IMG/VR virus record: IMGVR_UViG_3300046531_000422
Reading direction: 5' to 3' (one strand)
Length of the DNA: 44,669 nucleotides
Source: a virus
Positions 1 to 44,669 of the stretch are shown piece by piece; position 1 is the first letter of the stretch; every line of letters starts with the position of its first letter. Both the position numbers and the translations under genes were made by a program. The notes under the pieces were generated by a model that saw only the letters and a program-made list of their open reading frames with translations, was not told the DNA's origin and made no database searches.

Positions 1-127
1 TAAAAAATATGAACTTTTCAAAAAGACTGACCATTAAAAGACATCAATTAAATTTTACACAAGATGATCTAGCAGAGCTGATTGGAGTATCTAGGGCAAC
101 AATAAATATGTGGGAAAATCCGGTATC
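1..127. repeat. Terminal direct repeat, exact copy of 44543..44669 (circular-assembly overlap)
   Basis: Read base by base: 1..127 (taaaaaatatgaactttt...ccggtatc) is identical to the last 127 nt of the window. Confidence 0.95.
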
Positions 128-689
128 AGATGAAAAATACCCCAATACAAATAACTTAAAAAAATTAGCCGAAGTTTTAAAAGTTGAAGAGTCATGGCTA
201 AGATTTGGTATAGGTGATAATCAGCCAAAAGACTACAAAAATTCTATTGAATTAAATAAGAACATACATATACTATCGGACGTTCCACTCGTGCCAATCA
301 ATCTTATAAGTGGTTGGTTGAAATCTAAACGAAAAATATTAAAAAAGGGATTAAATATGAGCATCGAAGAAAGAAAAGAAGTAATATTTCCATGTCCCAT
401 CGAAGGAGATTCAATGGTTAGCGAATCAAATCCAGAAAAAAGTATTTATGATGGAGATATAGCCATAGTAGACCCAACAATGATTAACAATATAAAAAGT
501 GGGGATGTCGTAATAGCTCAATATGGAATGCTAAGCGACAATTACAAATTAAGGATTTATAGAAAGGATGGTACAGATGATTATTTGATACCATTGAACA
601 AAAGATATAATTCAATAAAAGTTGACGAAAATGTAAGAATTGTAGGAAAAGTTTTAAGAATTTATAAAAATTTATATTCAAAATATTAG
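9..689 (+). CDS. CI/LexA-like repressor: XRE-type HTH plus S24 peptidase domain
   Basis: N-term LTIKRHQLNFTQDDLAELIGVSRATINMWE (HTH_XRE); C-term GDSM...DGDIAIVDP...RIVGKVL (S24 Ser/Lys dyad context); divergent from Cro-like gene. Confidence 0.85.
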   Translation: MNFSKRLTIKRHQLNFTQDDLAELIGVSRATINMWENPVSDEKYPNTNNLKKLAEVLKVEESWLRFGIGDNQPKDYKNSIELNKNIHILSDVPLVPINLISGWLKSKRKILKKGLNMSIEERKEVIFPCPIEGDSMVSESNPEKSIYDGDIAIVDPTMINNIKSGDVVIAQYGMLSDNYKLRIYRKDGTDDYLIPLNKRYNSIKVDENVRIVGKVLRIYKNLYSKY

Positions 690-6199: not shown

Positions 6200-8824
6200 T
6201 TATTGTCCTAAGTATTTAATTTCTAAACTAGAATGCTTAATAGTTATAGGTATATTTCCATTGTTAATAGCTCTTACGTTTATGGTATCTCCTAAAGTTA
6301 ATAAAATTGATATAAATCCAGAATTATTTCCAGTCATTTCTACTAAATTTGCAACTAAAGGATTTTTACAAGATCCATAATCACTATTTTCAAATGCACT
6401 ATTCACACGTATGGAAGAATCAAGCCAATAGGTATTTGTTGCAACTCCAGCGGTTCCATCATGATGCAAATCATATTGAATTTTATAGTACCCATCAAAA
6501 GGGGCAGTAAATGTAGATGTAGATGAATTAAATCCAGAAAGATTATTTATTGTAACATGTGGAAAAAGTAGCTCAGAATTTGCTCCGGCGTTAATTAAAA
6601 CATCAGAAAATCCTTCTTTATCAGAAAATAAAATAGGTAAAGATAATCCTAATTTATTGTCTATCCCATTTAAAAACCCAGTAGTTGTTCGTGAGCTATA
6701 TTGTACCGTAGAAACGGGTGTAAAATTTACAGGTGTAAAATTTACATCAGCTACTTCTCCATCAGATATTGAGGAAAGATAAACATTGCTTATATTTGCA
6801 CCACCGGAAAATATTGGAGTAACTGTATAACTACTAGAATCCGGATGATACCTAACAGTTGAACTTGTAATATTAACAGATGAGGGATTGCATCCTATTG
6901 CAAAAAAATCAGTAATAGAACCAAGATCATTAATTACAAAATCTAATCCAGCCCCTTGATTTAAAATATCAATACATCTAGCGCTTATACTTGTAGACCC
7001 GCTATTTGATGAAGATATAGTTTTTGCTTGGCAATTTCTAACTTCAATAGATACTTCATTAAAATTATAAGAAATTTGATTCAATTTATCCAAACAATCA
7101 ATAAATAATAAATTCTCATTTACACCAGTTCCTGTACCAGTAGAATTGAACTCAAGACATCCAGTAAAATCAGTGCCAATATAGTGTTGTATTGCGCCTT
7201 GTTCAAAATTAAAATTATTCTTTATATTTGAAAAATTTATTCTAATAGAACCAATATCTATAAATGGTAATGGAATAGAATCCCATGAAGAATCATTTTG
7301 TAAAAGACCTCCAGTGAATAAAGCATTGCCTAATGGAAAAATATCTATAAATGGATATAAAAACATATCTACAAAATTAAATTCTCCCGTTGCATAAATT
7401 GCACATCTATTTGTAGCAGAAGGGCTGAATAATGATAGGTACACAACAGCCGCTTCATATGTTAAAAATGGATTTGTTAGGCATCCTGTTGGTGAAGAAT
7501 CATCTCCAGTAAAAGAATTTATATAAGCTATTTGAGGATATTTTATAGAATTTAAGGGAGCACCGCCAATATTTGACAATGACGTTACTGGATCAGCAAC
7601 ATCTGATAAATTATTAGTTTTATTCAACTGCACATTATTAATAGCATTTTGAATAGTTACACCATCTACTAAAACATAATTAGATATAGTTTCTGCCGAC
7701 CATTGACCACCAGAAGTAACTGAAAAACATCTTAATTTTATAGTTGTTTGAAGTGGAACAAAGAAAAACGAGGATACCGAATTTGTACCAATAGTAACAA
7801 GCGATGTCCCCCTATTAACATTTATTCCTGCCGCACCATTTGATCTAACTATAACAACATCACCAATATTTGGATTAACAGGCATTATCCCAGTTGCAAC
7901 TGGAGAAGAAAGTGAAGCAAAATAAATCTTATTAGATAAAAATTGAACAGGTGTTGCAACAGCAATAATAATTGATTCAAGAGTAGTAGATACATTCTCC
8001 TGCCAAACCGCAGTAGAAGATGTTCCTGTTGTTATGCACCCCCAGTATGATTGTGCAGCACTATCAAAATATGTATCTAACCCTGCTTCACCGGCAACTA
8101 CTCCATTAGGATCACCGGTACCAATAATAGTTGCCCGCTGCCCACCAATATTATTAAGTGATATTGAGGCACTCGCTACATCTGATAAATTGCTTGCCTT
8201 ATTTAACTGTATGTTACCAATTGCATTTTGAACAATAGATCCATCTATTGTTACAGATCCAATAATTCCTTCTGCACGCCATTGCCCCCCACTTGGAGTA
8301 GCAAAACATCTTAGTATAATTGTTGACCCAAAAGGTAAGAAAAAAGAACTTGAAACTGATGTACCGGATATAGTAATTAATCCAGTTCCCTTGCTAATAT
8401 TAATCCCCGCTGCCGCATTCGCATGAATAATAACAATATCACTCAAATTTGGAGCTATTGGCATTATTGAATTAGCTGCTGGAGATGATAACCTAGCATA
8501 ATAAATTCTATTCGATAACATTTGAACAGGTGTTGATACATCGATATTTATAGATTCAAGATCGATCGATATGTTATCCCATACCGCGGTTGAGGTAGTC
8601 CCCGTTGTAATACAATTCCAGTAATGTTTAGCAACACTATCAAAATATGTATCTTTACCAGCCGTTCCTGCCTGAAATCCATTAGGGTCTCCTGTTCCTA
8701 TAATTGTTGGATTTTGGAAATTTAAAGCAAATCTAGTATTCACACCACCACGAAGACCAACTGTTTCATCAGTTGATAAAAAATTACCACCATTATTAAA
8801 TTGACTAAATTTTTTAGAAGCCAT
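6200..8824 (-). CDS. Long tail fibre / receptor-binding protein with internal 192-aa duplication and C1q/TNF-like C-terminal head
   Basis: Fibre-type N-terminus MASKKFSQFNNGG..TDE, NLSDVA..IGG collar motifs, C-term FTAPFDGYYKIQY...LTLGDTINV...EIKYLGQ. Confidence 0.8.
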   Translation of the reverse strand: MASKKFSQFNNGGNFLSTDETVGLRGGVNTRFALNFQNPTIIGTGDPNGFQAGTAGKDTYFDSVAKHYWNCITTGTTSTAVWDNISIDLESINIDVSTPVQMLSNRIYYARLSSPAANSIMPIAPNLSDIVIIHANAAAGINISKGTGLITISGTSVSSSFFLPFGSTIILRCFATPSGGQWRAEGIIGSVTIDGSIVQNAIGNIQLNKASNLSDVASASISLNNIGGQRATIIGTGDPNGVVAGEAGLDTYFDSAAQSYWGCITTGTSSTAVWQENVSTTLESIIIAVATPVQFLSNKIYFASLSSPVATGIMPVNPNIGDVVIVRSNGAAGINVNRGTSLVTIGTNSVSSFFFVPLQTTIKLRCFSVTSGGQWSAETISNYVLVDGVTIQNAINNVQLNKTNNLSDVADPVTSLSNIGGAPLNSIKYPQIAYINSFTGDDSSPTGCLTNPFLTYEAAVVYLSLFSPSATNRCAIYATGEFNFVDMFLYPFIDIFPLGNALFTGGLLQNDSSWDSIPLPFIDIGSIRINFSNIKNNFNFEQGAIQHYIGTDFTGCLEFNSTGTGTGVNENLLFIDCLDKLNQISYNFNEVSIEVRNCQAKTISSSNSGSTSISARCIDILNQGAGLDFVINDLGSITDFFAIGCNPSSVNITSSTVRYHPDSSSYTVTPIFSGGANISNVYLSSISDGEVADVNFTPVNFTPVSTVQYSSRTTTGFLNGIDNKLGLSLPILFSDKEGFSDVLINAGANSELLFPHVTINNLSGFNSSTSTFTAPFDGYYKIQYDLHHDGTAGVATNTYWLDSSIRVNSAFENSDYGSCKNPLVANLVEMTGNNSGFISILLTLGDTINVRAINNGNIPITIKHSSLEIKYLGQ
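7559..8710 (-). repeat. Tandem in-frame duplication inside tail-fibre gene (aa 39-230 and 231-422)
   Basis: TIIGTGDPNG...QLNK.NLSDVA....L.NIGG occurs twice with a 192-aa period, clearly alignable by eye. Confidence 0.85.
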
Positions 8825-8965: not shown

Positions 8966-9351
8966 TATCCATGGATTCCTTGAAATATAGGTTGAAAAAA
9001 TATTTGTATTTTAACTTGTTGAACTTGTGGAGTTTGACTAACAATCTTAAAATAAGGCGCACTATCAAATAAATAAGGTATTAATGGTATAGAGCATAAA
9101 CTAGGCACAGCAGGAATTAAAAAATCAGACAAAATAGAACCATCAAAATTTTTGAGAACATAAAAAATTGAACCATTTTTATCATTTGTAAAATAAATTT
9201 TTAAATCACTAGTTGTCCAATTTGATGGGAATAATAAATTTCTTGGCTGCATTCCACCACAGTCTATTAATTCAGAATTAGTCCCACCAATTAAAATTTT
9301 TGATTCTTGAACCACCAATGTTCTTTTATATTTAAATTTTTCATTTATCAT
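8965..9351 (-). CDS. hypothetical tail-fibre-associated protein
   Basis: Lies between the two fibre genes in the late operon. Confidence 0.5.
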   Translation of the reverse strand: MINEKFKYKRTLVVQESKILIGGTNSELIDCGGMQPRNLLFPSNWTTSDLKIYFTNDKNGSIFYVLKNFDGSILSDFLIPAVPSLCSIPLIPYLFDSAPYFKIVSQTPQVQQVKIQIFFQPIFQGIHG

Positions 9352-29811: not shown

Positions 29812-30232
29812 CTGTAATTTCTGTTTTCTTCGTATCCCCGTATTTATCTTTATTCATAATACTCATTAATTTCATCATATGAGCAGCACGCATATTGCAG
29901 CGTTGAACACGTGCAGAATTTGGCATTAATCCATGTTTCCCCATGATCATATCTTGAGAATCGTCCTCCAAAGATTCAAGCACATAATTAGCTTGAACCT
30001 CAGTCCTACAGCGCTGTGCGCGTGTGTACATCTGCAAAAAGTCTTCCTTGTCACGTATCCATCCGTATATAGTTCTAGCACACGGCCAGTGTTTACATTC
30101 TTCTGTTTCGCATAATCTTTCAAGACTAGAATAAGTAACAGAAACAACATCACAGATATCTTTAGCCAATTGTTCTGTATATTTCGTAGGCCTACCGAAC
30201 GGTTCTTTGCGTTTTTTTGTTGTTGTCATCAT
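29663..30232 (-). CDS. Terminase small subunit
   Basis: N-term GRPTKYTEQLAKDICD...TIYGWI HTH typical of TerS; directly upstream of TerL. Confidence 0.75.
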   Translation of the reverse strand: MMTTTKKRKEPFGRPTKYTEQLAKDICDVVSVTYSSLERLCETEECKHWPCARTIYGWIRDKEDFLQMYTRAQRCRTEVQANYVLESLEDDSQDMIMGKHGLMPNSARVQRCNMRAAHMMKLMSIMNKDKYGDTKKTEITGANGGPVEYRENLTADERNRRIGALLDTARTRGTRPSSTDDGKTKFAAK

Positions 30233-30636: not shown

Positions 30637-30903
30637 ATGATTAACTTAGCCATTGAAAATATGACAAAAAAAATTGAGCAACTCTGTGTTTTGCAAGAAA
30701 TATTTGGATACAACGTAAAAACTTATAGATCATTTTTTTACTTTGAATTTGCTTGTGAAAAACCAGCAAAAAAATTATTCAAATTACTAAAAGAATCTAT
30801 AGGCAAACACATTTCTATTGATCTTGTATCTGATGTTGAATTTGTCGATGAAGAAACTGGTCTTGTTTCACCCGCATATTGTAGTGTTCGAGTATCAGCT
30901 TAA
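30637..30903 (+). CDS. hypothetical protein
   Basis: GGAG SD; first gene after promoter. Confidence 0.6.
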   Translation: MINLAIENMTKKIEQLCVLQEIFGYNVKTYRSFFYFEFACEKPAKKLFKLLKESIGKHISIDLVSDVEFVDEETGLVSPAYCSVRVSA

Positions 30904-30924
30904 TAATCCAAAAGGAGTAATGAA

Positions 30925-31125
30925 ATGAACACACCAAAATATAAAGTAGGTCAATATGTAAATTATACAAATGATTACGGAGTAAAATTAAGAGGAGCAC
31001 GATTAATAAAAAAAATAGCAGATGAGTCAAATACATTAAGTCAATACGGAGTTCATTATTTTATAGAATGCGATTCTCCCTGGTGTCCAGTTAGCGAAAA
31101 AAATCTTTCACCAATATCTGAATAA
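30925..31125 (+). CDS. hypothetical protein
   Basis: AGGAG SD. Confidence 0.55.
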   Translation: MNTPKYKVGQYVNYTNDYGVKLRGARLIKKIADESNTLSQYGVHYFIECDSPWCPVSEKNLSPISE

Positions 31126-31139
31126 AAAGGAAAATAAAA

Positions 31140-31349
31140 ATGAAGAAATCATACGAAGAAATTAAAGAAATACTTGTAAAAGCATATAGGCACGATCGAT
31201 TGTATGGGCGCGGAGACGACTATGGAGATTATGTAGTAAGTAAAAGATATCAAGACTATTTAGATGGTAAAAACGATGATGAGATACTAATTTCACGACA
31301 CGACAGTCACACTCGAGAAACGATTTACTTTGACATATTGAACAAATAA
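31140..31349 (+). CDS. hypothetical protein
   Basis: AAGGAA SD. Confidence 0.55.
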   Translation: MKKSYEEIKEILVKAYRHDRLYGRGDDYGDYVVSKRYQDYLDGKNDDEILISRHDSHTRETIYFDILNK

Positions 31350-31352
31350 AAG

Positions 31353-31381
31353 TAGACTCAGTCTAATAATTAAGATATACT
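31353..31381 (+). promoter_or_regulatory. Early promoter with palindrome TAGACTCAGTCTA over the -35
   Basis: TAGACT 31353-58, 17 nt, TATACT 31376-81; upstream context aaataaaag identical to the site at 30554. Confidence 0.6.
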
Positions 31382-31418
31382 GTTTATATCAGTTCACAAC
31401 AACAAAGGAGACTTAAAA

Positions 31419-31637
31419 ATGAACAACAAAACAGTCAGAGAATTAGAAATTGAATTAATTGTTTTAAACATACAAAGAAAAAGCATTGAAAAATCAAATG
31501 CAGTAAAAAGCAATTTTCCAGAAATAAAAAGAACTTTTACCTGGAGGAAAAGAGGGGGTGGTGGAATTAGAGACCTAGCAAAGTTCTCTGCAGAAATTAA
31601 TAAAGAATATATCAATAAAGGAGAAACAAAATGTTAA
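31419..31637 (+). CDS. hypothetical protein
   Basis: AAGGAG SD; preferred over antisense ORF 31394..31615. Confidence 0.55.
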   Translation: MNNKTVRELEIELIVLNIQRKSIEKSNAVKSNFPEIKRTFTWRKRGGGGIRDLAKFSAEINKEYINKGETKC

Positions 31638-31951
31638 AAATAAAAAATATTTATACAGACGAAGTAATTGAATCAATAAAATTCAATACAAACTCATTAG
31701 TAATGAGGGTTATATTTGAATACTTGGGAATTGAAGGAGTCTTTGTTACTAGCCTACAAATCAGAAAAGACGGAAGATCAGAAATTATTAATAGATTCTC
31801 AATTTGTATTAATAGTGACAAACAAGAAGTATTCAAGACAATCAAAAAGCTAAATATAGACATCTCTGAAATTTCAACAAATTTTTACATTTTAGTAAAA
31901 GATGAAATTGAGAAAAAAATTGGAAATAAAGCAAATGAGTATGGAATTTAA
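31631..31951 (+). CDS. hypothetical protein
   Basis: AAGGAG SD, overlaps upstream stop. Confidence 0.55.
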   Translation: MLKIKNIYTDEVIESIKFNTNSLVMRVIFEYLGIEGVFVTSLQIRKDGRSEIINRFSICINSDKQEVFKTIKKLNIDISEISTNFYILVKDEIEKKIGNKANEYGI

Positions 31952-32004
31952 CAAAAAAGGAGATACTAATCTCACATCATGACAGTCACATAGGAGAACT
32001 AAAA

Positions 32005-32163
32005 ATGAAATATCAAAAAGCAATAATTGGACGACAAATAGAAACATCTCGTAGACGACGAGCTATGAAGAAATGGCTTAGAACAAGGAATATAGAATAT
32101 ACGATGAAAGATCAATACAACGAAAAAGCACTCATTAAATTAATCAAAAAAAATATAATTTAA
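32005..32163 (+). CDS. small basic protein (52 aa)
   Basis: TAGGAG SD 8 nt upstream; MKYQKAIIGRQIETSRRRRAMKKWL...; below track cutoff. Confidence 0.4.
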   Translation: MKYQKAIIGRQIETSRRRRAMKKWLRTRNIEYTMKDQYNEKALIKLIKKNII

Positions 32164-32182
32164 TCAACAAAGAAGAAACAAA

Positions 32183-32413
32183 ATGACAACCTTTAAAATT
32201 GAAGTACCTGGCAACTACTTAACACGTGGTGGCGAAACAGTAAAAATATTACAAATAAATTCTGAAAAAGCACCAATTTGGTATAGAAATTATTGTTTAG
32301 GAGAGAAGATAGCAGGACAATTTAAGGGCTGTAGGTTCATCTGGCAAAAGTCTGGAGAGATGCATGAAGGACGAAAAAGTGATAACGATATCGTTAAATA
32401 CCTTTCAAATTAA
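32183..32413 (+). CDS. hypothetical protein
   Basis: ORF in operon, weak SD. Confidence 0.5.
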   Translation: MTTFKIEVPGNYLTRGGETVKILQINSEKAPIWYRNYCLGEKIAGQFKGCRFIWQKSGEMHEGRKSDNDIVKYLSN

Positions 32414-32438
32414 ACATAATACAAAAGGAATTCTTAGA

Positions 32439-32627
32439 ATGCTAACAGAAGAACAAATAAAGTGGGCAAAGCAGCATGACTGGTTTTGTTGTGATAATAA
32501 CGATGGATCGATACATGTATTTGATCAGCAAATAGAATGCGATGATCATTTTGAGTACAAATACATTAAAACATTCAATAATTTTAAAGAATTACAAAAA
32601 TGGGCAGAAAACCAAAATGGCACTTAA
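32439..32627 (+). CDS. hypothetical protein (start moved to Met26 of ORF 32364..32627)
   Basis: AAGGAA SD upstream of ATG 32439. Confidence 0.5.
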   Translation: MLTEEQIKWAKQHDWFCCDNNDGSIHVFDQQIECDDHFEYKYIKTFNNFKELQKWAENQNGT

Positions 32628-32931
32628 CATAAAAAACATCATTTCGAAAATCAACAAAGAGAGAGTTAAAAAACTAGATGAGTTACCTTATTCTTTTTCT
32701 TCAAAAGAAGTAGAAAAAATAGAGTTATTAATAGAAAAATATACCAAACAAAAAAAACTATTGATAAGCGCTTTTTATGCAGCGAATGATTTTGCAAGCT
32801 TATCAATAGAAAAAACTAGATTTTGCAAAGATGAATATAACAGAAGGATTAAATACAGATTTGAAAATAATGCAGAATTGACTGAACAAATGGTTATTAA
32901 ATGTTTGAAAAAATTAAACTTAACAAACTAA
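32617..32931 (+). CDS. hypothetical protein (start moved to Met26 of ORF 32542..32931)
   Basis: ATG 32617 overlaps the upstream gene end. Confidence 0.5.
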   Translation: MALNIKNIISKINKERVKKLDELPYSFSSKEVEKIELLIEKYTKQKKLLISAFYAANDFASLSIEKTRFCKDEYNRRIKYRFENNAELTEQMVIKCLKKLNLTN

Positions 32932-33189
32932 TCTACCCAAAGAATTTCTGATTTCTTCTTCAGTAGCTATTCTATACGCGTGAGAATTTTTTTCATTCAC
33001 AGTACAAAAATCATTTTCATATCTATTAGAGCCACACTGAATATCTTGATAATGTTTTTTGATTCCAGTTTTAAGTTCAGTTGATAGCTTTACTTTACGA
33101 AATTGAAGCGCTTTAAAAAATTGAATCAATTGTTTAAATCTATATTGATGATTATCACATCTTGAGAACTGTTCAATTTTTTTCGCCAT
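32920..33189 (-). CDS. small Cys/His protein, RCxxHxxxF family member A
   Basis: N-term SRCDNHQYRF shared with ORFs 33685..33906 and 34130..34345. Confidence 0.5.
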   Translation of the reverse strand: MAKKIEQFSRCDNHQYRFKQLIQFFKALQFRKVKLSTELKTGIKKHYQDIQCGSNRYENDFCTVNEKNSHAYRIATEEEIRNSLGRLVC

Positions 33190-33617: not shown

Positions 33618-33694
33618 TGGTCTGTGTAGATGGATTTGAACCACCGAACTCCTGCTCCCAAAGCAGGCGCGTTACCAAGCTACGCTATACACAG
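33618..33694 (-). tRNA. tRNA-Pro: tRNA-Pro (anticodon UGG), CCA encoded
   Basis: Hand-folded cloverleaf: acceptor CTGTGTA/TACACAG, D stem GCGT/ACGC, anticodon stem CCTGC/GCAGG with loop TTTGGGA, T arm GGTGG-TTCAAAT-CCATC, A-CCA 3' end; 77 nt. Confidence 0.85.
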
Positions 33695-34589: not shown

Positions 34590-34850
34590 ATGTTTACAAG
34601 ACATAAAAATTATGGATATGACTTCAATAAAAAACCACAACTTCTTAAAAAACTTGACAATAACGAAATAAGCATAAAGGAATATTGTGATTCAATGATG
34701 TTTCCACACTTTGTATATTTTTATTGTGAAGAAGCAGGAAGAATGGTTGGGACAACGTATGAAGAATATTCGGAACATGTAAGGGAAAATATTATAAAAC
34801 GCCGCGCCGAAAAATCTATAAGTTCAAAAAATTGTTTAGCAAGTAAATAA
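34590..34850 (+). CDS. hypothetical protein
   Basis: ORF; a GACTGAGTC palindrome lies upstream at 34504-34512. Confidence 0.5.
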   Translation: MFTRHKNYGYDFNKKPQLLKKLDNNEISIKEYCDSMMFPHFVYFYCEEAGRMVGTTYEEYSEHVRENIIKRRAEKSISSKNCLASK

Positions 34851-34858
34851 TGTCAATA

Positions 34859-35035
34859 TTAATATTTATTCAATTTTCTATTTATTTCTGATCTCACTAA
34901 AAAAGCTTCATCAGCTTCTTCTTCATATTTTTTCAAATTAGCTCTAGCAAGCTTCATAACAGCATGTGAAAAGTACGGGCGTTTGTTTGTCAATGACTTA
35001 TTACTATTTATTTTTAATATATTCTTATTAGCCAT
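34859..35035 (-). CDS. small basic protein (58 aa)
   Basis: MANKNILKINSNKSLTNKRPYFSHAVMKLARANLKKYEEEADEAFLVRSEINRKLNKY; below track cutoff; ATG 12 nt after the U-run of the terminator at 35048-35090. Confidence 0.35.
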   Translation of the reverse strand: MANKNILKINSNKSLTNKRPYFSHAVMKLARANLKKYEEEADEAFLVRSEINRKLNKY

Positions 35036-35047
35036 AAATAATTAGTC

Positions 35048-35090
35048 AAAAAAAAATCCCTTCAATCTTTAATTCAGAAAGAATGGATTT
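35048..35090 (-). terminator. Intrinsic terminator (minus strand), GGGA-U9 type
   Basis: 10-bp stem 35054-63 / 35081-90 (1 mismatch), 17-nt loop, U9 = 35048-35056. Confidence 0.6.
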
Positions 35091-35243
35091 TAAATAATTT
35101 TGCCGGTGTAGACACATCAAGGAATCACCCCATCCCGCTACTCCGTTCAAGTTACTTTGTTTTTCATGGTGTTGGTGATTATTCAACAACATTCCATAAC
35201 GTTTCACCTAGTCCATCCCGCTAGACCCTGCTCCTACAAAACA
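35048..35243 (-). ncRNA. Candidate ~195-nt GGA-rich small RNA or leader (possible CsrA-binding RNA)
   Basis: Bounded by the predicted promoter (35250-35277) and terminator (35048-35090); no credible ORF; 7 GGA on the minus strand versus 2 on the plus; exact repeat UAGCGGGAUGG at 35130-40 and 35213-23. Confidence 0.45.
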
Positions 35244-35249
35244 GTGTGA

Positions 35250-35277
35250 ATTTTATCAACATAATAAAAAATGTCAA
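35250..35277 (-). promoter_or_regulatory. Sigma70-like promoter with extended -10 (minus strand)
   Basis: TTGACA (35272-77), 16-nt spacer, TGaTAAAAT (35250-58). Confidence 0.55.
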
Positions 35278-35279
35278 AC

Positions 35280-35313
35280 AAAAAAAATCCCCTAATTTTC
35301 AGTTAGAGGATTT
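35280..35313 (-). terminator. Intrinsic terminator (minus strand), GGGGA-U8 type
   Basis: 11-bp stem 35285-95 / 35303-13 (1 mismatch), 7-nt loop, U8 = 35280-87; abuts the next promoter. Confidence 0.6.
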
Positions 35314-35337
35314 AGTTTAAAGGTATTATTATAAGAC

Positions 35338-35524
35338 ACAACAACAGTTTACCAACATTTCATAAACTATCAACAACTCGTAAGTAATACTTACAACATC
35401 AACAACCATTAGGAATTTCCGAACAGTAGTTGATAACCAAAAAACCATATTTAGGTTTTTGTTATTAACTTTACACAATTAAAATAAATTGTTGTTAACA
35501 CTATTATTAATAAATATCAATAAC
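35338..35524. repeat. Iteron-like cluster ATCAACAAC (both orientations) plus 15-bp palindrome
   Basis: atcaacaac at 35369-77 and 35398-406; atcaataac 35516-24; inverted atcaact 35429-35 and aacaacaat 35488-99; palindrome gtaagtaatacttac 35380-94. Confidence 0.5.
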
Positions 35525-35734
35525 TTACAACGACAGGGTAAAAAAAGTAACCTATTAGGGGTGTGTATAACTTGTGTGTATCTCCCCCATACCCCCTCTG
35601 ACCGCCCACTTCGTAAACGGGCTATCAAGCTTCGCTTGATGGATATATATGATAATACTCTTAAGTTTATAGACGATTTATGATGTTGACTGTAAATAAT
35701 AGTTAATCAAATTTACGATCAGTGTCGTAAATGC

Positions 35735-35763
35735 ATTCTACTGTCAGATAAAAAACGTGTCAA
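35735..35763 (-). promoter_or_regulatory. Near-consensus sigma70 promoter (minus strand) with palindrome at +1
   Basis: TTGACA (35758-63), 17 nt, TAGAAT (35735-40); inverted repeat atttacga-N6-tcgtaaat at 35711-35732. Confidence 0.5.
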
Positions 35764-35977
35764 GAACTTTCTGCATTTATTTTCAAATAGTCCTTTAACA
35801 CAAACCTTAAAATGATCGTTTTTATGTGAAATATTCATATATATCAATAAGTTAAGTGCTTTAATGCTAAATGGATATGCTTAAGGGAAGCTTAACTCAA
35901 TAAACTTTATTAATGATATCGCTTAGTAAAGAAAAGTGCGTTTCTCTTTATTAGTGAATCACAAACACATATGCAAT

Positions 35978-36010
35978 AAAAAAGCCCATAAACGCATCGA
36001 TTACAGGCTT
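35978..36010 (-). terminator. Weak intrinsic terminator after ORF 36068..36379
   Basis: 5-bp stem aagcc/ggctt, 19-nt loop, U6 (35978-83) on the minus strand. Confidence 0.35.
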
Positions 36011-36067
36011 CTTAAGAGATAAAGGTAGGGTAACTATAAATTATCTATGAGACGCTTAAATGATGCG

Positions 36068-40707: not shown

Positions 40708-41120
40708 TGACAATCTGGCATGATAATACTGAAATACCTAAACATGAATCTGATTGTTTTTATATAGTTATAGATAGTTTCTATGATAAAAATGGTCACT
40801 TTAAAGAAATGCGTGAAAAATTAAGATTTGGCAAATTTAGAAGAGATATAATTGATTTATTTATTCTTGATGAGAATGTAACACCATTTTCACATGTTAA
40901 AAAATGGGCATACGAAGAAGACATAATAAAAAGCGCATTTAAAGAACCTATTGGATATGCCATTAAACTTAATAAACCAGAAAGAAAATATTACTTTCAC
41001 GAACATAAAACATGTTTTGATGAACAACAAATTGTAGTTTATATAAATAAAGAAGATGCCAAATCAGCATGCGAATCATGTGATTCGCCAAAACCAACAA
41101 TTGTTCCTCTATATGACTAA
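40707..41120 (+). CDS. hypothetical protein (weak DUF551-like look)
   Basis: ATGA coupling; W-rich termini; weak. Confidence 0.5.
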   Translation: MTIWHDNTEIPKHESDCFYIVIDSFYDKNGHFKEMREKLRFGKFRRDIIDLFILDENVTPFSHVKKWAYEEDIIKSAFKEPIGYAIKLNKPERKYYFHEHKTCFDEQQIVVYINKEDAKSACESCDSPKPTIVPLYD

Positions 41121-41682
41121 AACTATTATTTTATCCTTAGCTTTGTGTTTTTTAACATCTGAGGCTATAGCTCAGAAATTCTCTACTGACGCATCATATG
41201 ATGTTTGTTTTACACCAGGACAGAATTGTACAAGCATGCTCGTTGATGAAATTCATAAAGAAAAGCAATCTATATTGGTACAGGCGTACAGTTTCACCAG
41301 CGTGCCTATTGCTAAAGCTTTAGTAGCAGCAAAACAAAGAGGTGTGGATGTAAAAGTGATTTTAGACAAATCGCAGTTCAAAGCTGAGAAATATTCAGCG
41401 TCAAAGTTTCTGGATAATCATGGAATTTCTGTCTGGATAGACTCCAAACCAGCGATTGCTCATAACAAGATTTTTATTTTTGGTGCTGATGCTATTGCTA
41501 CAGGCAGTTTTAATTTCACAAAAGCTGCTCAAGAGAAAAATGCTGAAAATTTGATCATCATTCATGATACTAATTTAAACGCCATCTACAAACAAAATTG
41601 GTTTAAAAGAAAAGAAGTATCTATTTTATTATCAAACTACAAGGAGAAACAAAATGCTCGTATTAACAAGGCTAATCGGTGA
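41113..41682 (+). CDS. Secreted PLD-family endonuclease (Nuc-like, single HKD)
   Basis: Signal peptide [21 protein letters not shown]; [32 protein letters not shown] = HxK...GSxN motif as in plasmid/Salmonella Nuc; start at Met20 of track ORF. Confidence 0.8.
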
Positions 41683-41854
41683 ATCAATTATAATCGGCGA
41701 CAATGAAGCTACTTTAACGATTTTGGATATTGATAGAAGTAGAAATCAAGTAAGAATAGGAATAGAAGCATCTAGAGAAATTCCTGTTAATAGGAAAGAA
41801 ATTTATGACAGCAAAAAAGAAGATATGAAATTACAATCAACAGGAGAAATATAA
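41654..41854 (+). CDS. csrA: CsrA/RsmA-family RNA-binding translational regulator
   Basis: [16 protein letters not shown]...[21 protein letters not shown] aligns with E. coli CsrA MLILTRRVGETLMIGD...[27 protein letters not shown] SD. Confidence 0.9.
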
Positions 41855-42174
41855 TGCAAGAAAAAACACTTAAATTAATCAAATATACTGAACTTAAAAA
41901 GAAAATAGGAATAGCTTATATACTTCTATTTATATTTGGAATATTTGGTGCTCATAAATTTTATGTAGGTGAAAATACATGGGGAACATGTGAATTGATG
42001 TTGCTTTTCTTTTCATTTATATTTTTTATTACAGTTTCTCCAATAGGAATATTTTTTTTCATCCTATTAGATATAGCAGTATTTTGTGATATTTTTCTAA
42101 TACCATCCGCAATAAAAAAAGAGAATTTTAAAATTATGGCGAGCTTGGGTATTGACCCAACAGAAGTAAGATAA
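41854..42174 (+). CDS. TM2-domain membrane protein
   Basis: AYILLFIFGIFGAHKFYVGE motif; TAATG coupling to csrA. Confidence 0.75.
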   Translation: MQEKTLKLIKYTELKKKIGIAYILLFIFGIFGAHKFYVGENTWGTCELMLLFFSFIFFITVSPIGIFFFILLDIAVFCDIFLIPSAIKKENFKIMASLGIDPTEVR

Positions 42175-44203: not shown

Positions 44204-44252
44204 TTTAAAACTCCAAATAATTATTGATTATTTTTAATTCCTTAATATTTCC

Positions 44253-44477
44253 TTAAGGTTTGTGATGTATATTTTTATTTGCTGATCGAGATAAAAAACA
44301 TGCTTTTATTTTTCCTTCGGTGATTATTTCAATTTGATATGCTCTTTTTTCAGGTATTTTTTTCCACTGATATATAGCATTTCGATTGATTCTTAGATGA
44401 TTTGCTAGATTTATGATACTTCCAAAATAATCTAGCAATAAATTTAAATGCTTTATCTTTCTTACACGTTTTCTCAT
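44253..44477 (-). CDS. Cro/YdaS-like HTH regulator (start at Met34 of track ORF)
   Basis: LLLDYFGSIINLANHLRINRNAIYQWKKIPEKRAYQIEIITEG matches the YdaS/Cro pattern; divergent from the repressor. Confidence 0.7.
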   Translation of the reverse strand: MRKRVRKIKHLNLLLDYFGSIINLANHLRINRNAIYQWKKIPEKRAYQIEIITEGKIKACFLSRSANKNIHHKP

Positions 44478-44486
44478 AGTTTTAAA

Positions 44487-44525
44487 TTGATGGGTTAACC
44501 TTACAAAAAAGATAAAATACATCAA
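44487..44525. promoter_or_regulatory. Repressor/cro switch region: inverted TTGATG...CATCAA elements and GGTTAACC palindrome
   Basis: TTGATG 44487-92, GGTTAACC 44493-500, CATCAA 44520-25; possible interleaved divergent promoters (-10 GATAAA 44511-16 rightward; TAAGGT = 44498-503 leftward). Confidence 0.35.
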
Positions 44526-44542
44526 CTTTAAAAAAAAGGATA

Positions 44543-44669
44543 TAAAAAATATGAACTTTTCAAAAAGACTGACCATTAAAAGACATCAATTAAATTTTAC
44601 ACAAGATGATCTAGCAGAGCTGATTGGAGTATCTAGGGCAACAATAAATATGTGGGAAAATCCGGTATC
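44543..44669. repeat. Terminal direct repeat, exact copy of 1..127 (contains the first 119 nt of the repressor gene)
   Basis: Identical to 1..127 when read base by base. Confidence 0.95.

Follow-up and report, generated by a model that had tools for sequence, protein, structure and literature searches.

A temperate-type phage, whose DNA was analysed here as a single window of 44,669 nucleotides, carries on its minus strand a gene-free stretch of ~196 nt with its own strong promoter and its own terminator, which probably yields a short RNA or acts as a gated leader of the genes that follow. In our tentative estimation, which falls somewhat short of an even chance, the most likely role of this G-rich, non-protein-coding RNA is that of a terminator-gated leader.

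Anatomy of the predicted transcription unit

Pattern scans and folding bore out the insulated arrangement described previously for this locus, in which a terminator closing an upstream unit is followed by a promoter and then by a second intrinsic terminator, all on the minus strand and without convincing coding potential (Table 1). The upstream terminator, with a folding energy of -10.2 kcal/mol, closes a preceding tiny unit. The promoter matches at 11 of 12 positions, being among the two best found by the pattern scan in 9 kb; its -10 element comprises TG at 35258-57 and TAAAAT at 35255-35250, and transcription is predicted to start at ~35242-35245. The hairpin of the downstream terminator (-10.4 to -11.5 kcal/mol) has an A/U-rich tract on its 5' side. 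Read on the + strand, this terminator could also end the transcript of a convergent 86-aa ORF.

Table 1. Features of the ~196-nt unit and of related loci in the window
Feature	Coordinates	Strand	Details
Upstream intrinsic terminator	35280..35313	-	Stem 35313-35285, 11 pairs; T8 35287-35280; pattern scan, independent scan
Sigma-70-type promoter	35250..35277	-	TTGACA 35277-35272, 16-nt spacer, extended -10 TGaTAAAAT 35258-35250
5' hairpin CUGUUUU-GUA-GGAGCAG	35228..35244	-	Minimum-free-energy folds; -4.8 kcal/mol on its own
Repeat module 1	35204..35234	-	GGAG (35234-31), 7 nt, UAGCGGGAUGG (35223-13), 4 nt, GGUGA (35208-04)
GTTGTTGAA	35182..35190	-	Fourth member of local GTTGTTG cluster; possible DNA-level operator motif
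Repeat module 2	35121..35144	-	GGAG (35144-41) directly followed by UAGCGGGAUGG (35140-30), then GGUGAU (35129-24)
23-codon ORF	35046..35117	-	AUG 35117-35115; stop UGA 35048-46; crosses terminator hairpin and U-run
Downstream intrinsic terminator	35048..35092	-	Interrupted hairpin 35092-35054 and U9 35056-35048; folds, independent scan
58-aa ORF	34859..35035	-	Starts 12 nt after the U-run; no SD, no own promoter
Palindrome TGTAAG-TATTA-CTTACg (TGTAAGTATTACTTACg)	35379..35395	-	GacA/UvrY-box-like; N5 spacer instead of N6
Phage csrA, 66 aa	41654..41854	+	Pfam PF02599, E=1.3e-16

Two further promoter/terminator units share with it a gap of 1 kb that is free of genes. Three of the few strong terminators of the genome (at 35983, 35287 and 35056) cluster on a single strand within 1 kb, and the only minus-strand promoter-like sites matching at least 10 of 12 positions between 30 and 39 kb are those at 35763, 35355 and 35277; the same scan found none in the minus-strand block downstream of 35035. 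This block consists of the 58-aa ORF, further small ORFs and a tRNA-Pro gene, and it is broken up by a + strand ORF (34590-34850). A second junction at which a terminator is followed by an SD-less ATG is present at 33260-33189.

The 58-aa ORF has an in-frame log-odds of 0.42 and no PADLOC, Pfam or PHROG match, and protein searches with it and with the 103-aa neighbour returned only these proteins themselves. Its C-terminal ~38 aa are kept in longer zinc-ribbon ORFs of relatives, and judging from its sequence it looks like an N-terminally truncated copy of these longer genes, a resemblance that suggests a rearrangement at the locus.

As regards coding potential within the unit, the earlier judgement that it holds no credible ORF was upheld, while the companion statement that none of its ORFs has an SD has to be withdrawn: an SD-like GGUGAU lies 6 nt upstream of the AUG of the 23-codon ORF, this AUG being 7 nt after the GGUGA shared by both repeat modules. 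The preliminary description had also overlooked a 53-codon GTG ORF (35207-35046, minus strand), of whose frame the 23-codon ORF is the 3' part. The codon log-odds of the 53- and 23-codon ORFs were -0.10 and -0.21, respectively, against 0.62+-0.24 in real genes, and apart from a repeat-protein artefact no homologue of either was found among 1.84 billion representative proteins. The open frame has no Pfam, PHROG or PADLOC match and was missed by both gene callers; none of the contigs spanning the region has a gene call in 35036-36067.

Repeat modules and RNA folding

The exact 11-nt repeat reported earlier was recovered as two copies of TAGCGGGATGG on the minus strand (35223-35213 and 35140-35130), and the window contains no third copy at up to 2 mismatches. 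Shuffling the element produced an exact 11-mer repeat in 118 of 20,000 trials, and TAGCGGGATGG is the only G+C-rich 11-mer in the genome repeated within 200 nt. In both modules the G-rich core lies in a predicted hairpin loop beside an SD-like sequence. Each copy is followed by GGUGA and, 6-7 nt further on, by an AUG; that after module 1 (35197-95) opens a 4-codon ORF. For module 1, the CUAG/CUAG hairpin proposed previously turned out to be weak (-1.7 kcal/mol), the favoured register being GGUCUA/UGGACU (35227-35210; -5.8 kcal/mol) with the loop GCGGGA, in which the GGA has an unpaired probability of 0.97. In module 2, UAGCGGGAUGG occupies the loop of the hairpin GGAGU/AUUCC (-6.6 kcal/mol), with a GGA unpaired probability of 0.67. 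The first GGA of the RNA is buried by the 5' hairpin, and the folding of the RNA as a whole is not significant (z-score of -1.69).

Many tRNA-Met genes begin with the bases of the 11-mer. A tRNA or tRNA-like identity was nevertheless rejected, as ARAGORN found only the tRNA-Pro at 33618-33694, no tRNA model matched at E<=10 and no TCCCGCT, which would pair with AGCGGGA, is present downstream. A type III toxin-antitoxin locus, in which tandem full-length RNA repeats precede an endoribonuclease gene of the ToxN/CptN/TenpN type, was likewise discarded, only the 11-nt core and short flanks being repeated and the downstream 58-aa ORF having none of the database matches sought above.

Distribution among related phages

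The element is identical in eight sister contigs from different samples, the sole exception being one mismatch in L087 somewhere in the 1,521 nt compared; the identity of these contigs (L085-L093) therefore leaves no usable variation. It is absent from seven related phages whose TerL is 56-76% identical, and searches by blastn, tblastx and nhmmer against TerL-anchored relatives (L001-L080, L094-L099 and L226-L228) returned nothing. The leader sequence had no match in phage, plasmid, viral, metagenome or genome collections: blastn of the region was negative in 50,697 phage records and 72,556 plasmids, and the wider viral, metagenome and genome collections, scanned by exact pattern, yielded for the double 11-mer only unrelated tandem repeats, a CRISPR array, coding repeats and tRNA-Met loci. 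Scans of viral contigs for GGAGCAGGG..AGCGGGATGG and for GGAG..11-mer..GGTGA gave high-G+C coding sequences only. A repeat in a metagenome-assembled genome (MAG; L174) shares the hairpin CUGUUYY-NNN-GGAGCAG and the 11-mer; its alignment was not significant against shuffles and it has no Rfam match, so that it was set aside as probable chance. The comparison of homologous loci suggested in the preliminary description thus found no such loci, and there was neither conservation nor covariation to use, no homologue of the leader having turned up among relatives or in databases. The gap of 1 kb is an orphan over its whole length, and the flanking small genes are poorly conserved as well.

The arrangement itself does recur. 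The relative L094 (TerL 76% identical) has, directly before its terminase and late operon, a terminator, a promoter of the form TTGACA-16-TGnGATAAT, a leader of ~70 nt, a terminator with U7 and an SD-less ATG; a terminator-spanning ORF is not reproduced in this leader. The preliminary description had offered, as an alternative, that the unit is a leader for the 58-aa ORF, and this proposal gains support from the position of that ORF just behind the U-run, its lack of SD and promoter, and the presence of the same module in L094.

A terminator-gated leader as the favoured explanation

In the mechanism that we favour, the sigma-70-type promoter would start the G-rich RNA and the strong intrinsic terminator would end it. 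Most transcripts would stop at U9 and accumulate as a discrete small RNA, and the fraction reading through would supply the downstream minus-strand block, which lacks a strong promoter of its own. Read-through might be brought about by a phage antiterminator, or by ribosomes translating the 23-codon ORF, which crosses the terminator and stops 10 nt short of the SD-less ATG. Among ~45 phage proteins scanned with Pfam or PHROGs, no Q-like or N-like antiterminator was identified, and many of the small proteins carry no annotation at all. The two GGAG-UAGCGGGAUGG-GGUGA modules would most plausibly be the sites of a dimeric RNA-binding factor that sets the termination choice, for which CsrA, whether of phage or host, is the obvious candidate. 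The hairpin with its U9 looks efficient, a property that suits a stand-alone sRNA gene equally well.

One of the closest known parallels is the late leader of lambda, in which the promoter P_R' gives rise to the 194-nt 6S RNA, ending at the terminator t_R', which is read through with the Q antiterminator. The unit described here likewise has a strong promoter, a predicted ORF-poor transcript of ~195 nt, an intrinsic terminator that looks efficient and promoterless genes behind it, and in L094 a similar module immediately precedes the terminase genes and the late operon. In contrast to lambda, the present unit does not lie directly upstream of the late operon: it is 5 kb from the terminase genes, which start at 30232, with an opposite-strand block (+ strand, 30637-32931) in between. 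Moreover, no Q-like protein was recognised among those scanned, nor any Q-binding or pause element, and there is no sequence similarity to the lambda leader.

In translation-coupled attenuators of the pyrBI type, the leader ORF extends through the attenuator hairpin. Here too an SD-bearing leader ORF runs through the terminator hairpin and the U-run, so that a closely following ribosome would prevent termination; however, no pause region that would sense nucleotides is evident, the L094 leader lacks the ORF, and the codon usage of the ORF is not gene-like. In CsrA-controlled mRNA leaders, dual GGA sites, one of them at the SD, are bridged by a single CsrA dimer over distances reported as 10-63 nt. 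The unit shares with them a pair of identical GGA sites, each with an SD-like GGUGA and an AUG close by; the second site comes before the short ORF leading into the next gene. In contrast, the candidate sites are 83 nt apart, beyond the range just given, and the GGA does not overlap the SD itself.

Alternative explanations

A role at the DNA level, or none at all, is rather unlikely, taking both versions jointly: proteins would bind the 11-mers and the GTTGTTG motifs within a hot-spot of regulation or recombination, or the stretch would be a decayed remnant, its promoter and terminators being of use to the neighbouring genes alone. The 83 bp between the 11-mer copies correspond to about 8 helical turns. 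The orphan state of the gap, its poorly conserved flanks, the apparent truncation of the 58-aa ORF with the rearrangement that it suggests, and a terminator that could be bidirectional are all consistent with these readings, as is the GTTGTTG cluster (four in 220 nt), a motif which recurs in regulatory regions of relatives. Against them, the 11-mer is present in only two copies, in direct orientation, within the transcribed part and not around the promoter; both copies are in hairpin loops and keep their GGAG and GGUGA flanks despite indels, a pattern suggestive of RNA-level selection. The near-complete identity of the sister contigs also argues against this explanation.

The preliminary description favoured a trans-acting decoy, namely an RNA of ~196 nt that would titrate phage or host CsrA through its GGAs and form with the csrA gene a phage-borne Csr/Rsm pair; we regard this action in trans as unlikely. 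The csrA homologue on which the idea was built is a real CsrA gene, of the gammaproteobacterial mobile-element type: E. coli CsrA (1y00) is its best solved relative and a Legionella plasmid copy its best match (59.6%), and identity to the listed Vibrio and other phage CsrAs is ~50%. It is no more than a candidate partner, and its gene is on the opposite strand at a distance of 6.4 kb. The text available for PMC7366521 and PMC8450108 documents CsrA/RsmA homologues borne by phages and plasmids, to which the present protein adds another mobile-element CsrA; that text mentions no phage-borne cognate CsrA-binding RNA, and none appeared in the titles and abstracts retrieved by keyword search.

The unit resembles CsrB, CsrC and RsmX/Y/Z in being a stand-alone promoter-terminator gene with several GGAs, two of them in loops, with an upstream inverted repeat like the GacA/UvrY box and with csrA in the same genome. 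Its two identical GGGAUGG cores in predicted loops would fit a dimeric RNA binder, and further GGAs are present at 9-23 nt from each core, a spacing that would suit dual-site binding by CsrA. The GGA counts given earlier, seven triplets on the transcribed strand versus two on the opposite one, are correct, and at least seven per 199 nt places the element in the top 1.4% of minus-strand windows; 3.7 are expected from its own composition (198 nt), and G-richness largely accounts for the excess. The claimed agreement of the repeat with 8 of 11 positions of the SELEX CsrA site is right as arithmetic but ordinary: the repeat matches 8-9 of 12 positions, at least 8 are matched by 125 of the 889 GGA-centred 12-mers of the window, and the base two positions before the GGA is C, not A. 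Nor are the GGAs preferentially unpaired (mean probability of 0.36 versus 0.39 for the whole RNA), only those of the two repeat copies, 2 of 7, being in predicted loops. RsmY and RsmZ carry 8 GGAs in 118-133 nt, 3 of them in loops, so that the density of 3.5 per 100 nt found here is about half of theirs, which is about 6-7 (PMC4353343).

No covariance model supported the relationship, as a scan with Rfam 15 gave no match for the region at the gathering threshold, and the Csr/Rsm families whose inspection had been suggested (CsrB, CsrC, RsmX/Y/Z) were not found in 34700-35700 even at E<=10. The element is, in addition, absent from all related phages. With Rfam empty, an ordinary consensus match and few GGAs in loops, the CsrA-specific part of the original proposal, as sponge or as sensor, passed no independent test, although CsrA may still be involved.

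The palindrome upstream of the unit (Table 1) resembles the GacA/UvrY box, TGTAAGN6CTTACA (PMC3171408, PMC4353343), and is unique in the genome, where 0.03 occurrences are expected. Its spacer, however, is N5, no canonical N6 box is present even if 2 mismatches are allowed, and phage-type GTTGTTGAT direct repeats flank it. Its centre lies ~143 nt upstream of the predicted start of the ~196-nt unit, from whose promoter it is cut off by another promoter and a terminator, and ~66 nt upstream of that of the neighbouring tiny unit, to whose promoter it belongs more naturally. A search for the Legionella LetA box gave chance-level matches.

A base-pairing RNA unrelated to CsrA, for instance of the Hfq type, which would act in trans using the exposed G-rich loops or single-stranded stretches as seeds, seems distinctly unlikely. 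An A/U-rich tract followed by a terminator hairpin and a long U-tail is the usual Hfq-binding module, and the unit has all three, together with its own promoter; it also clusters with two similar short units. Against this reading, the phage contains no site complementary to the 11-mer at up to 2 mismatches, a duplex scan, which covered the phage only, gave no clear target, and SD sequences are not targetable by G-rich seeds.

That the open frame 35207-35046 encodes a small protein, of 53, 48 or 23 aa, is very improbable: it is open for 53 codons and GGUGAU lies 6 nt ahead of the AUG at 35117, but a different frame scores higher, the terminator itself would make up the last 14 codons, and the codon statistics, homology searches and gene calls presented above all speak against it.

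Implications

If transcribed as predicted, the unit would add to the short noncoding RNAs and gated leaders that phages encode, which are common features. Together with L094, it indicates that terminator-promoter-leader-terminator modules recur before SD-less genes in this phage group, which points to control of the antitermination type. What is distinctive is the csrA-bearing genome, since in the literature checked, as far as its available text goes, documented phage CsrAs come without a known RNA partner. It is a long shot that CsrA and a cognate RNA, whose two identical GGGAUGG loops would bind it, form a Csr circuit private to this phage. Such an RNA would either serve as a decoy and buffer the CsrA of phage or host, or let CsrA operate a terminator switch controlling the downstream accessory genes, and the variant box might place its transcription under a host signal of the GacA/UvrY kind. 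A cognate RNA, if real, would mean that a post-transcriptional circuit can be imported by phages as a whole and not just as its protein.

Promoter, terminators and repeat of the element

We tentatively read the gene-free unit at about 35048-35277 as a leader gated by its terminator. Its sequence features are real, and the positions that the preliminary description had assigned to the promoter, to both terminators and to the two copies of the 11-mer all hold on the minus strand (see table). The promoter is among the two best sites within 9 kb. An exact 11-mer repeat appeared in 0.6% of shuffles of the element, and the present one is the sole G+C-rich one in the genome; no third copy of TAGCGGGATGG occurs in the window at up to 2 mismatches. 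The shared repeat is longer than 11 nt, both copies carrying GGAG-(7 or 0 nt)-UAGCGGGAUGG-(4 or 0 nt)-GGUGA, with an AUG 6-7 nt after GGUGA. With -1.7 kcal/mol, the CUAG/CUAG hairpin drawn earlier is weak; a register with loop GCGGGA is favoured (-5.8 kcal/mol). The folding z-score of the whole element is -1.69. We regard explanations at the level of DNA, or the lack of any function, as rather unlikely.

Features of the window discussed in the text
Feature	Position	Strand	Details
CI/LexA-like repressor	9-689		
Cro-like regulator	44253-44576		
TerS and TerL	30232-28267		
Terminator after 103-aa ORF	about 36010-35978	minus	
First gap unit, promoter	35763-35735	minus	TTGACA-17-TAGAAT; predicted to drive ~300 nt
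Second gap unit, promoter	35355-35328	minus	TTGGTA-16-TATAAT; predicted ~40-nt hairpin-only RNA, to terminator 35313-35280
Upstream terminator of element	stem 35313-35285, T8 35287-35280	minus	
Promoter of element	TTGACA 35277-72, TGaTAAAAT 35258-50	minus	16-nt spacer; 11/12 positions matched
11-mer TAGCGGGATGG	35223-13 and 35140-30	minus	exact copies
Downstream terminator of element	hairpin 35092-35054, U9 35056-35048	minus	interrupted hairpin; about -11 kcal/mol
Conserved ~38-aa segment	34860-34972; L001 5721-5833; L094 1024-1123; L095 6117-6168		L001, L094 and L095 are relatives

Possible relationship with the Csr/Rsm system

As originally counted, the transcribed strand carries seven GGA triplets against two on the opposite strand; seven falls in the top 1.4% of windows, with 3.7 expected from the composition of the element (39% G+C, 25% G). 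The likeness of the repeat to the SELEX-derived CsrA site RUACARGGAUGU, which had been put forward for CsrA binding, proved ordinary: at least 8 positions are matched by 125 of the 889 GGA-centred 12-mers of the genome, and at least 9 by 30 of them. As a group the GGAs are not preferentially unpaired: this is predicted for the two repeat copies alone (0.97 and 0.67), the mean unpaired probability being 0.36 over the seven GGAs vs 0.39 over the whole RNA. The Csr/Rsm covariance models did not match the element, which is below RsmY/Z (8 GGA in 118-133 nt, 3 in loops; PMC4353343) in GGA density and exposure.

The csrA gene noted in the same genome proved real (PF02599, E=1.3e-16); of the proteins with a solved structure, E. 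coli CsrA is its best relative. The product of the phage gene is closest to a copy on a conjugative plasmid of Legionella lytica (59.6% identity), the nearest CsrA in PLSDB lying in the tra region of an L. lytica plasmid, and is ~50% identical to the Vibrio and other phage CsrAs listed. CsrA homologues on phages and plasmids are documented, with 30 of 2,517 phages carrying one in PMC7366521 and further cases in PMC8450108; the portions consulted of both papers make no mention of a phage-carried cognate RNA for a phage CsrA, and none figures in the titles and abstracts returned by literature searches. Considering the csrA gene and the exposed repeats together with the unmatched models and the ordinary site, we find it unlikely that the element is a trans-acting decoy for CsrA.

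The csrA gene belongs to an accessory ('moron') cassette of three genes (41056-42174, + strand). The gene before it, whose 3' end it overlaps, encodes a signal-peptide-bearing protein that by its sequence resembles a phospholipase-D/Nuc-type nuclease and matches nothing but PHROG 12711 (function unknown, E=3.5e-40); the gene after it encodes a small membrane protein.

The sequence searched contains no canonical GacA/UvrY box (TGTAAGN6CTTACA; PMC3171408). A variant whose spacer is 5 nt, TGTAAGTATTACTTACg (35395-35379; 0.03 expected per genome), is unique in the genome and lies ~66 nt upstream of the predicted start of the neighbouring tiny unit, and a terminator stands between it and the element. 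GTTGTTGAT repeats lie on both sides of this palindrome and are found in regulatory regions of relatives as well; the palindrome may simply be a phage operator. The motif GTTGTTG(A/T) has four copies within 220 nt (35406, 35377, 35345 and 35190, minus; ~0.02 expected), two flanking the palindrome and one in the spacer of the 35355 promoter, and GTTGTTGTGAATCAGTGAG is found upstream of terS in the divergent regulatory region of two relatives (L001 ~9322-9340, L095 ~9307-9325); this motif is possibly the operator of a regulator common to these phages.

Search for relatives of the element

The region recurs in eight further contigs from other samples, identical bar one mismatch in L087 over the compared 1,521 nt. 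The conservation in related genomes that the preliminary description had looked to is lacking, the element being absent from all seven related phages by blastn, nhmmer (E<=10) and motif search; blastn against plasmid and phage collections gave no match either. The gated leader would also release a discrete RNA of ~196 nt; another kind of trans-acting sRNA we hold to be quite unlikely.

Exact scans of viral, metagenome and genome collections for the double 11-mer matched only unrelated sequences: tandem repeats, a CRISPR array and tRNA-Met loci opening by chance with AGCGGGAUGG. The window element is not tRNA-like, and that reading was rejected. In metagenome and MAG contigs, e.g. from Moraniibacteriota, a tRNA-Met gene starts with the 11-mer (AGCGGGAUGGAG..; L103, L104, L130, L153, L160, L162, L167 and L168), and a second segment lies ~70-100 nt (start to start) upstream. 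In several loci this segment copies the first ~15-25 nt of tRNA-Met before diverging; in others it shares no more than the 11-mer and a few bases. ARAGORN did not call it a tRNA, and the usual order is segment, tRNA-Met, tRNA-Met, tRNA-Asp.

A MAG locus that shares the 5' hairpin and the 11-mer of the element (L174) was also discarded, its similarity not being significant vs shuffles and having no Rfam identity. At 2486-2870 this locus (SUTU01000007.1, 'Cyanobacteria bacterium SIG28') holds a tandem array of three near-identical 94-nt units and a fourth, diverged one. The ORF immediately behind the array encodes a membrane protein which, judged from its sequence, is a CDP-alcohol phosphatidyltransferase. 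Two hairpins, CUGUUCC-AAA-GGAGCAG and ACCGGU-N8-ACCGGU, recur in every unit together with the motif UAGCGGGAUGGGUUCC, and GGAGCAC of the fourth is able to pair with GUGCUCC beside the Shine-Dalgarno sequence (SD). The repeat had no match in Rfam and is possibly an unrecognised cis-regulatory repeat.

Coding potential

The initial list of ORFs had overlooked a 53-codon GTG frame (35207-35046), and the 23-codon ORF, described as devoid of an SD, has an SD-like GGUGAU (35129-24) 6 nt before its AUG; it extends across the terminator, its stop codon lying 10 nt ahead of the ATG of ORF 34859-35035. Codon log-odds were -0.10 for the 53-codon frame and -0.21 for its 23-codon part, the references being 0.62+-0.24 for true genes, 0.27-0.49 for small neighbouring genes and -0.33+-0.22 for off-frames. 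The only phmmer match of the frame among 1.84 billion representative proteins was artefactual, to a repeat protein; Pfam, PHROG and PADLOC gave none, and no gene was called within 35036-36067 in any contig spanning this gap. Because codon scores, protein searches and gene calls are all negative, the claim that the element is non-coding stands and a small protein gene is highly improbable; the element may nevertheless encode a translated leader peptide.

Genomic context and proposed mechanism

The window is a complete metagenomic contig of 44,669 nt (JGI 3300046747, Ga0495543_0000366) from a tailed phage with roughly 31% G+C, which also encodes a Sak4-like annealing protein, an endolysin and DnaD-like replication functions. 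The proteins of the window that were scanned include no recognisable integrase. A nucleotide search against 50,697 phage records gave no match, and the TerL proteins of the closest relatives are 76%, 66%, 61% and 56% identical. The CI-like repressor (within 1-700) and the Cro-like regulator (within 44250-44669) occupy opposite contig ends, an arrangement that points to a complete, circularly permuted genome.

A 1,032-nt gap (35036-36067, minus) contains three gene-free units, each bounded by promoter and terminator, and the element is the last of them. The first holds a 41-52% G+C island at 35520-35640 (GGGGGUAUGGGGGAGAU), and the ~40-nt hairpin RNA of the second resembles Rfam NsiR1 weakly (23 bits, E=0.05, below threshold). 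The three gap promoters are the only minus-strand promoter-like sites of at least 10/12 in 30-39 kb, none of that strength being found in the minus-strand block behind the gap, which comprises a 58-aa ORF (34859-35035), three small ORFs, tRNA-Pro and two more ORFs. The 58-aa ORF has its ATG 12 nt after the U-run and no SD, and a second junction of a terminator with an SD-less ATG lies at 33260-33189 (minus). In the relative with a 76% identical TerL (L094), 8260-8421 shares the architecture of the element directly before the late operon (126-aa ORF, 227-aa ORF, TerS, TerL): a terminator, TTGACA-16-TGnGATAAT, a ~70-nt leader, a -17 kcal/mol hairpin with U7 and, ~10 nt later, an SD-less ATG. This module looks like an antitermination-type late switch.

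At 33260-33189 the hairpin (-18.8 kcal/mol, U7) is followed ~17 nt on by the ATG of an 89-aa ORF (32920-33189), and the sequence resembles that at 35060-35033 (AGGGAUUUUUUU..UAA..UUAUGGC). Nearby, 33338-33285 (minus) is 82% identical to L094 4728-4782, among the few non-coding stretches that blastn detects; its two neighbouring hairpins contain three compensatory base-pair changes, one being GCCAACG/CGUUGGC vs GGCAACG/CGUUGCC and the other two in the second stem, and it is a conserved structured element or bidirectional terminator. Near the element, only the C-terminal ~38 aa of the 58-aa ORF (..AVMKLARANLKKYEEEADEAFLVR..) are conserved; they recur within longer zinc-ribbon ORFs of relatives with 79-85% DNA identity to their 3' ends and in reversed orientation relative to TerL, whereas elsewhere these genomes have diverged beyond the reach of blastn. 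In the window copy the N-terminal part seems to have been lost or replaced.

The terminator-gated leader is favoured because of the signals, their context and the recurrence of the module, and we take it to be comparable to the lambda P_R'/6S/t_R' leader. Its two loop-displayed repeats would be putative sites for a dimeric RNA-binding factor beside SD-like sequences; CsrA is the natural candidate for this factor, and no test here singles it out. The element, an orphan, is most likely a phage regulatory RNA or leader of an ordinary kind; a role of CsrA is a possibility, not a finding.
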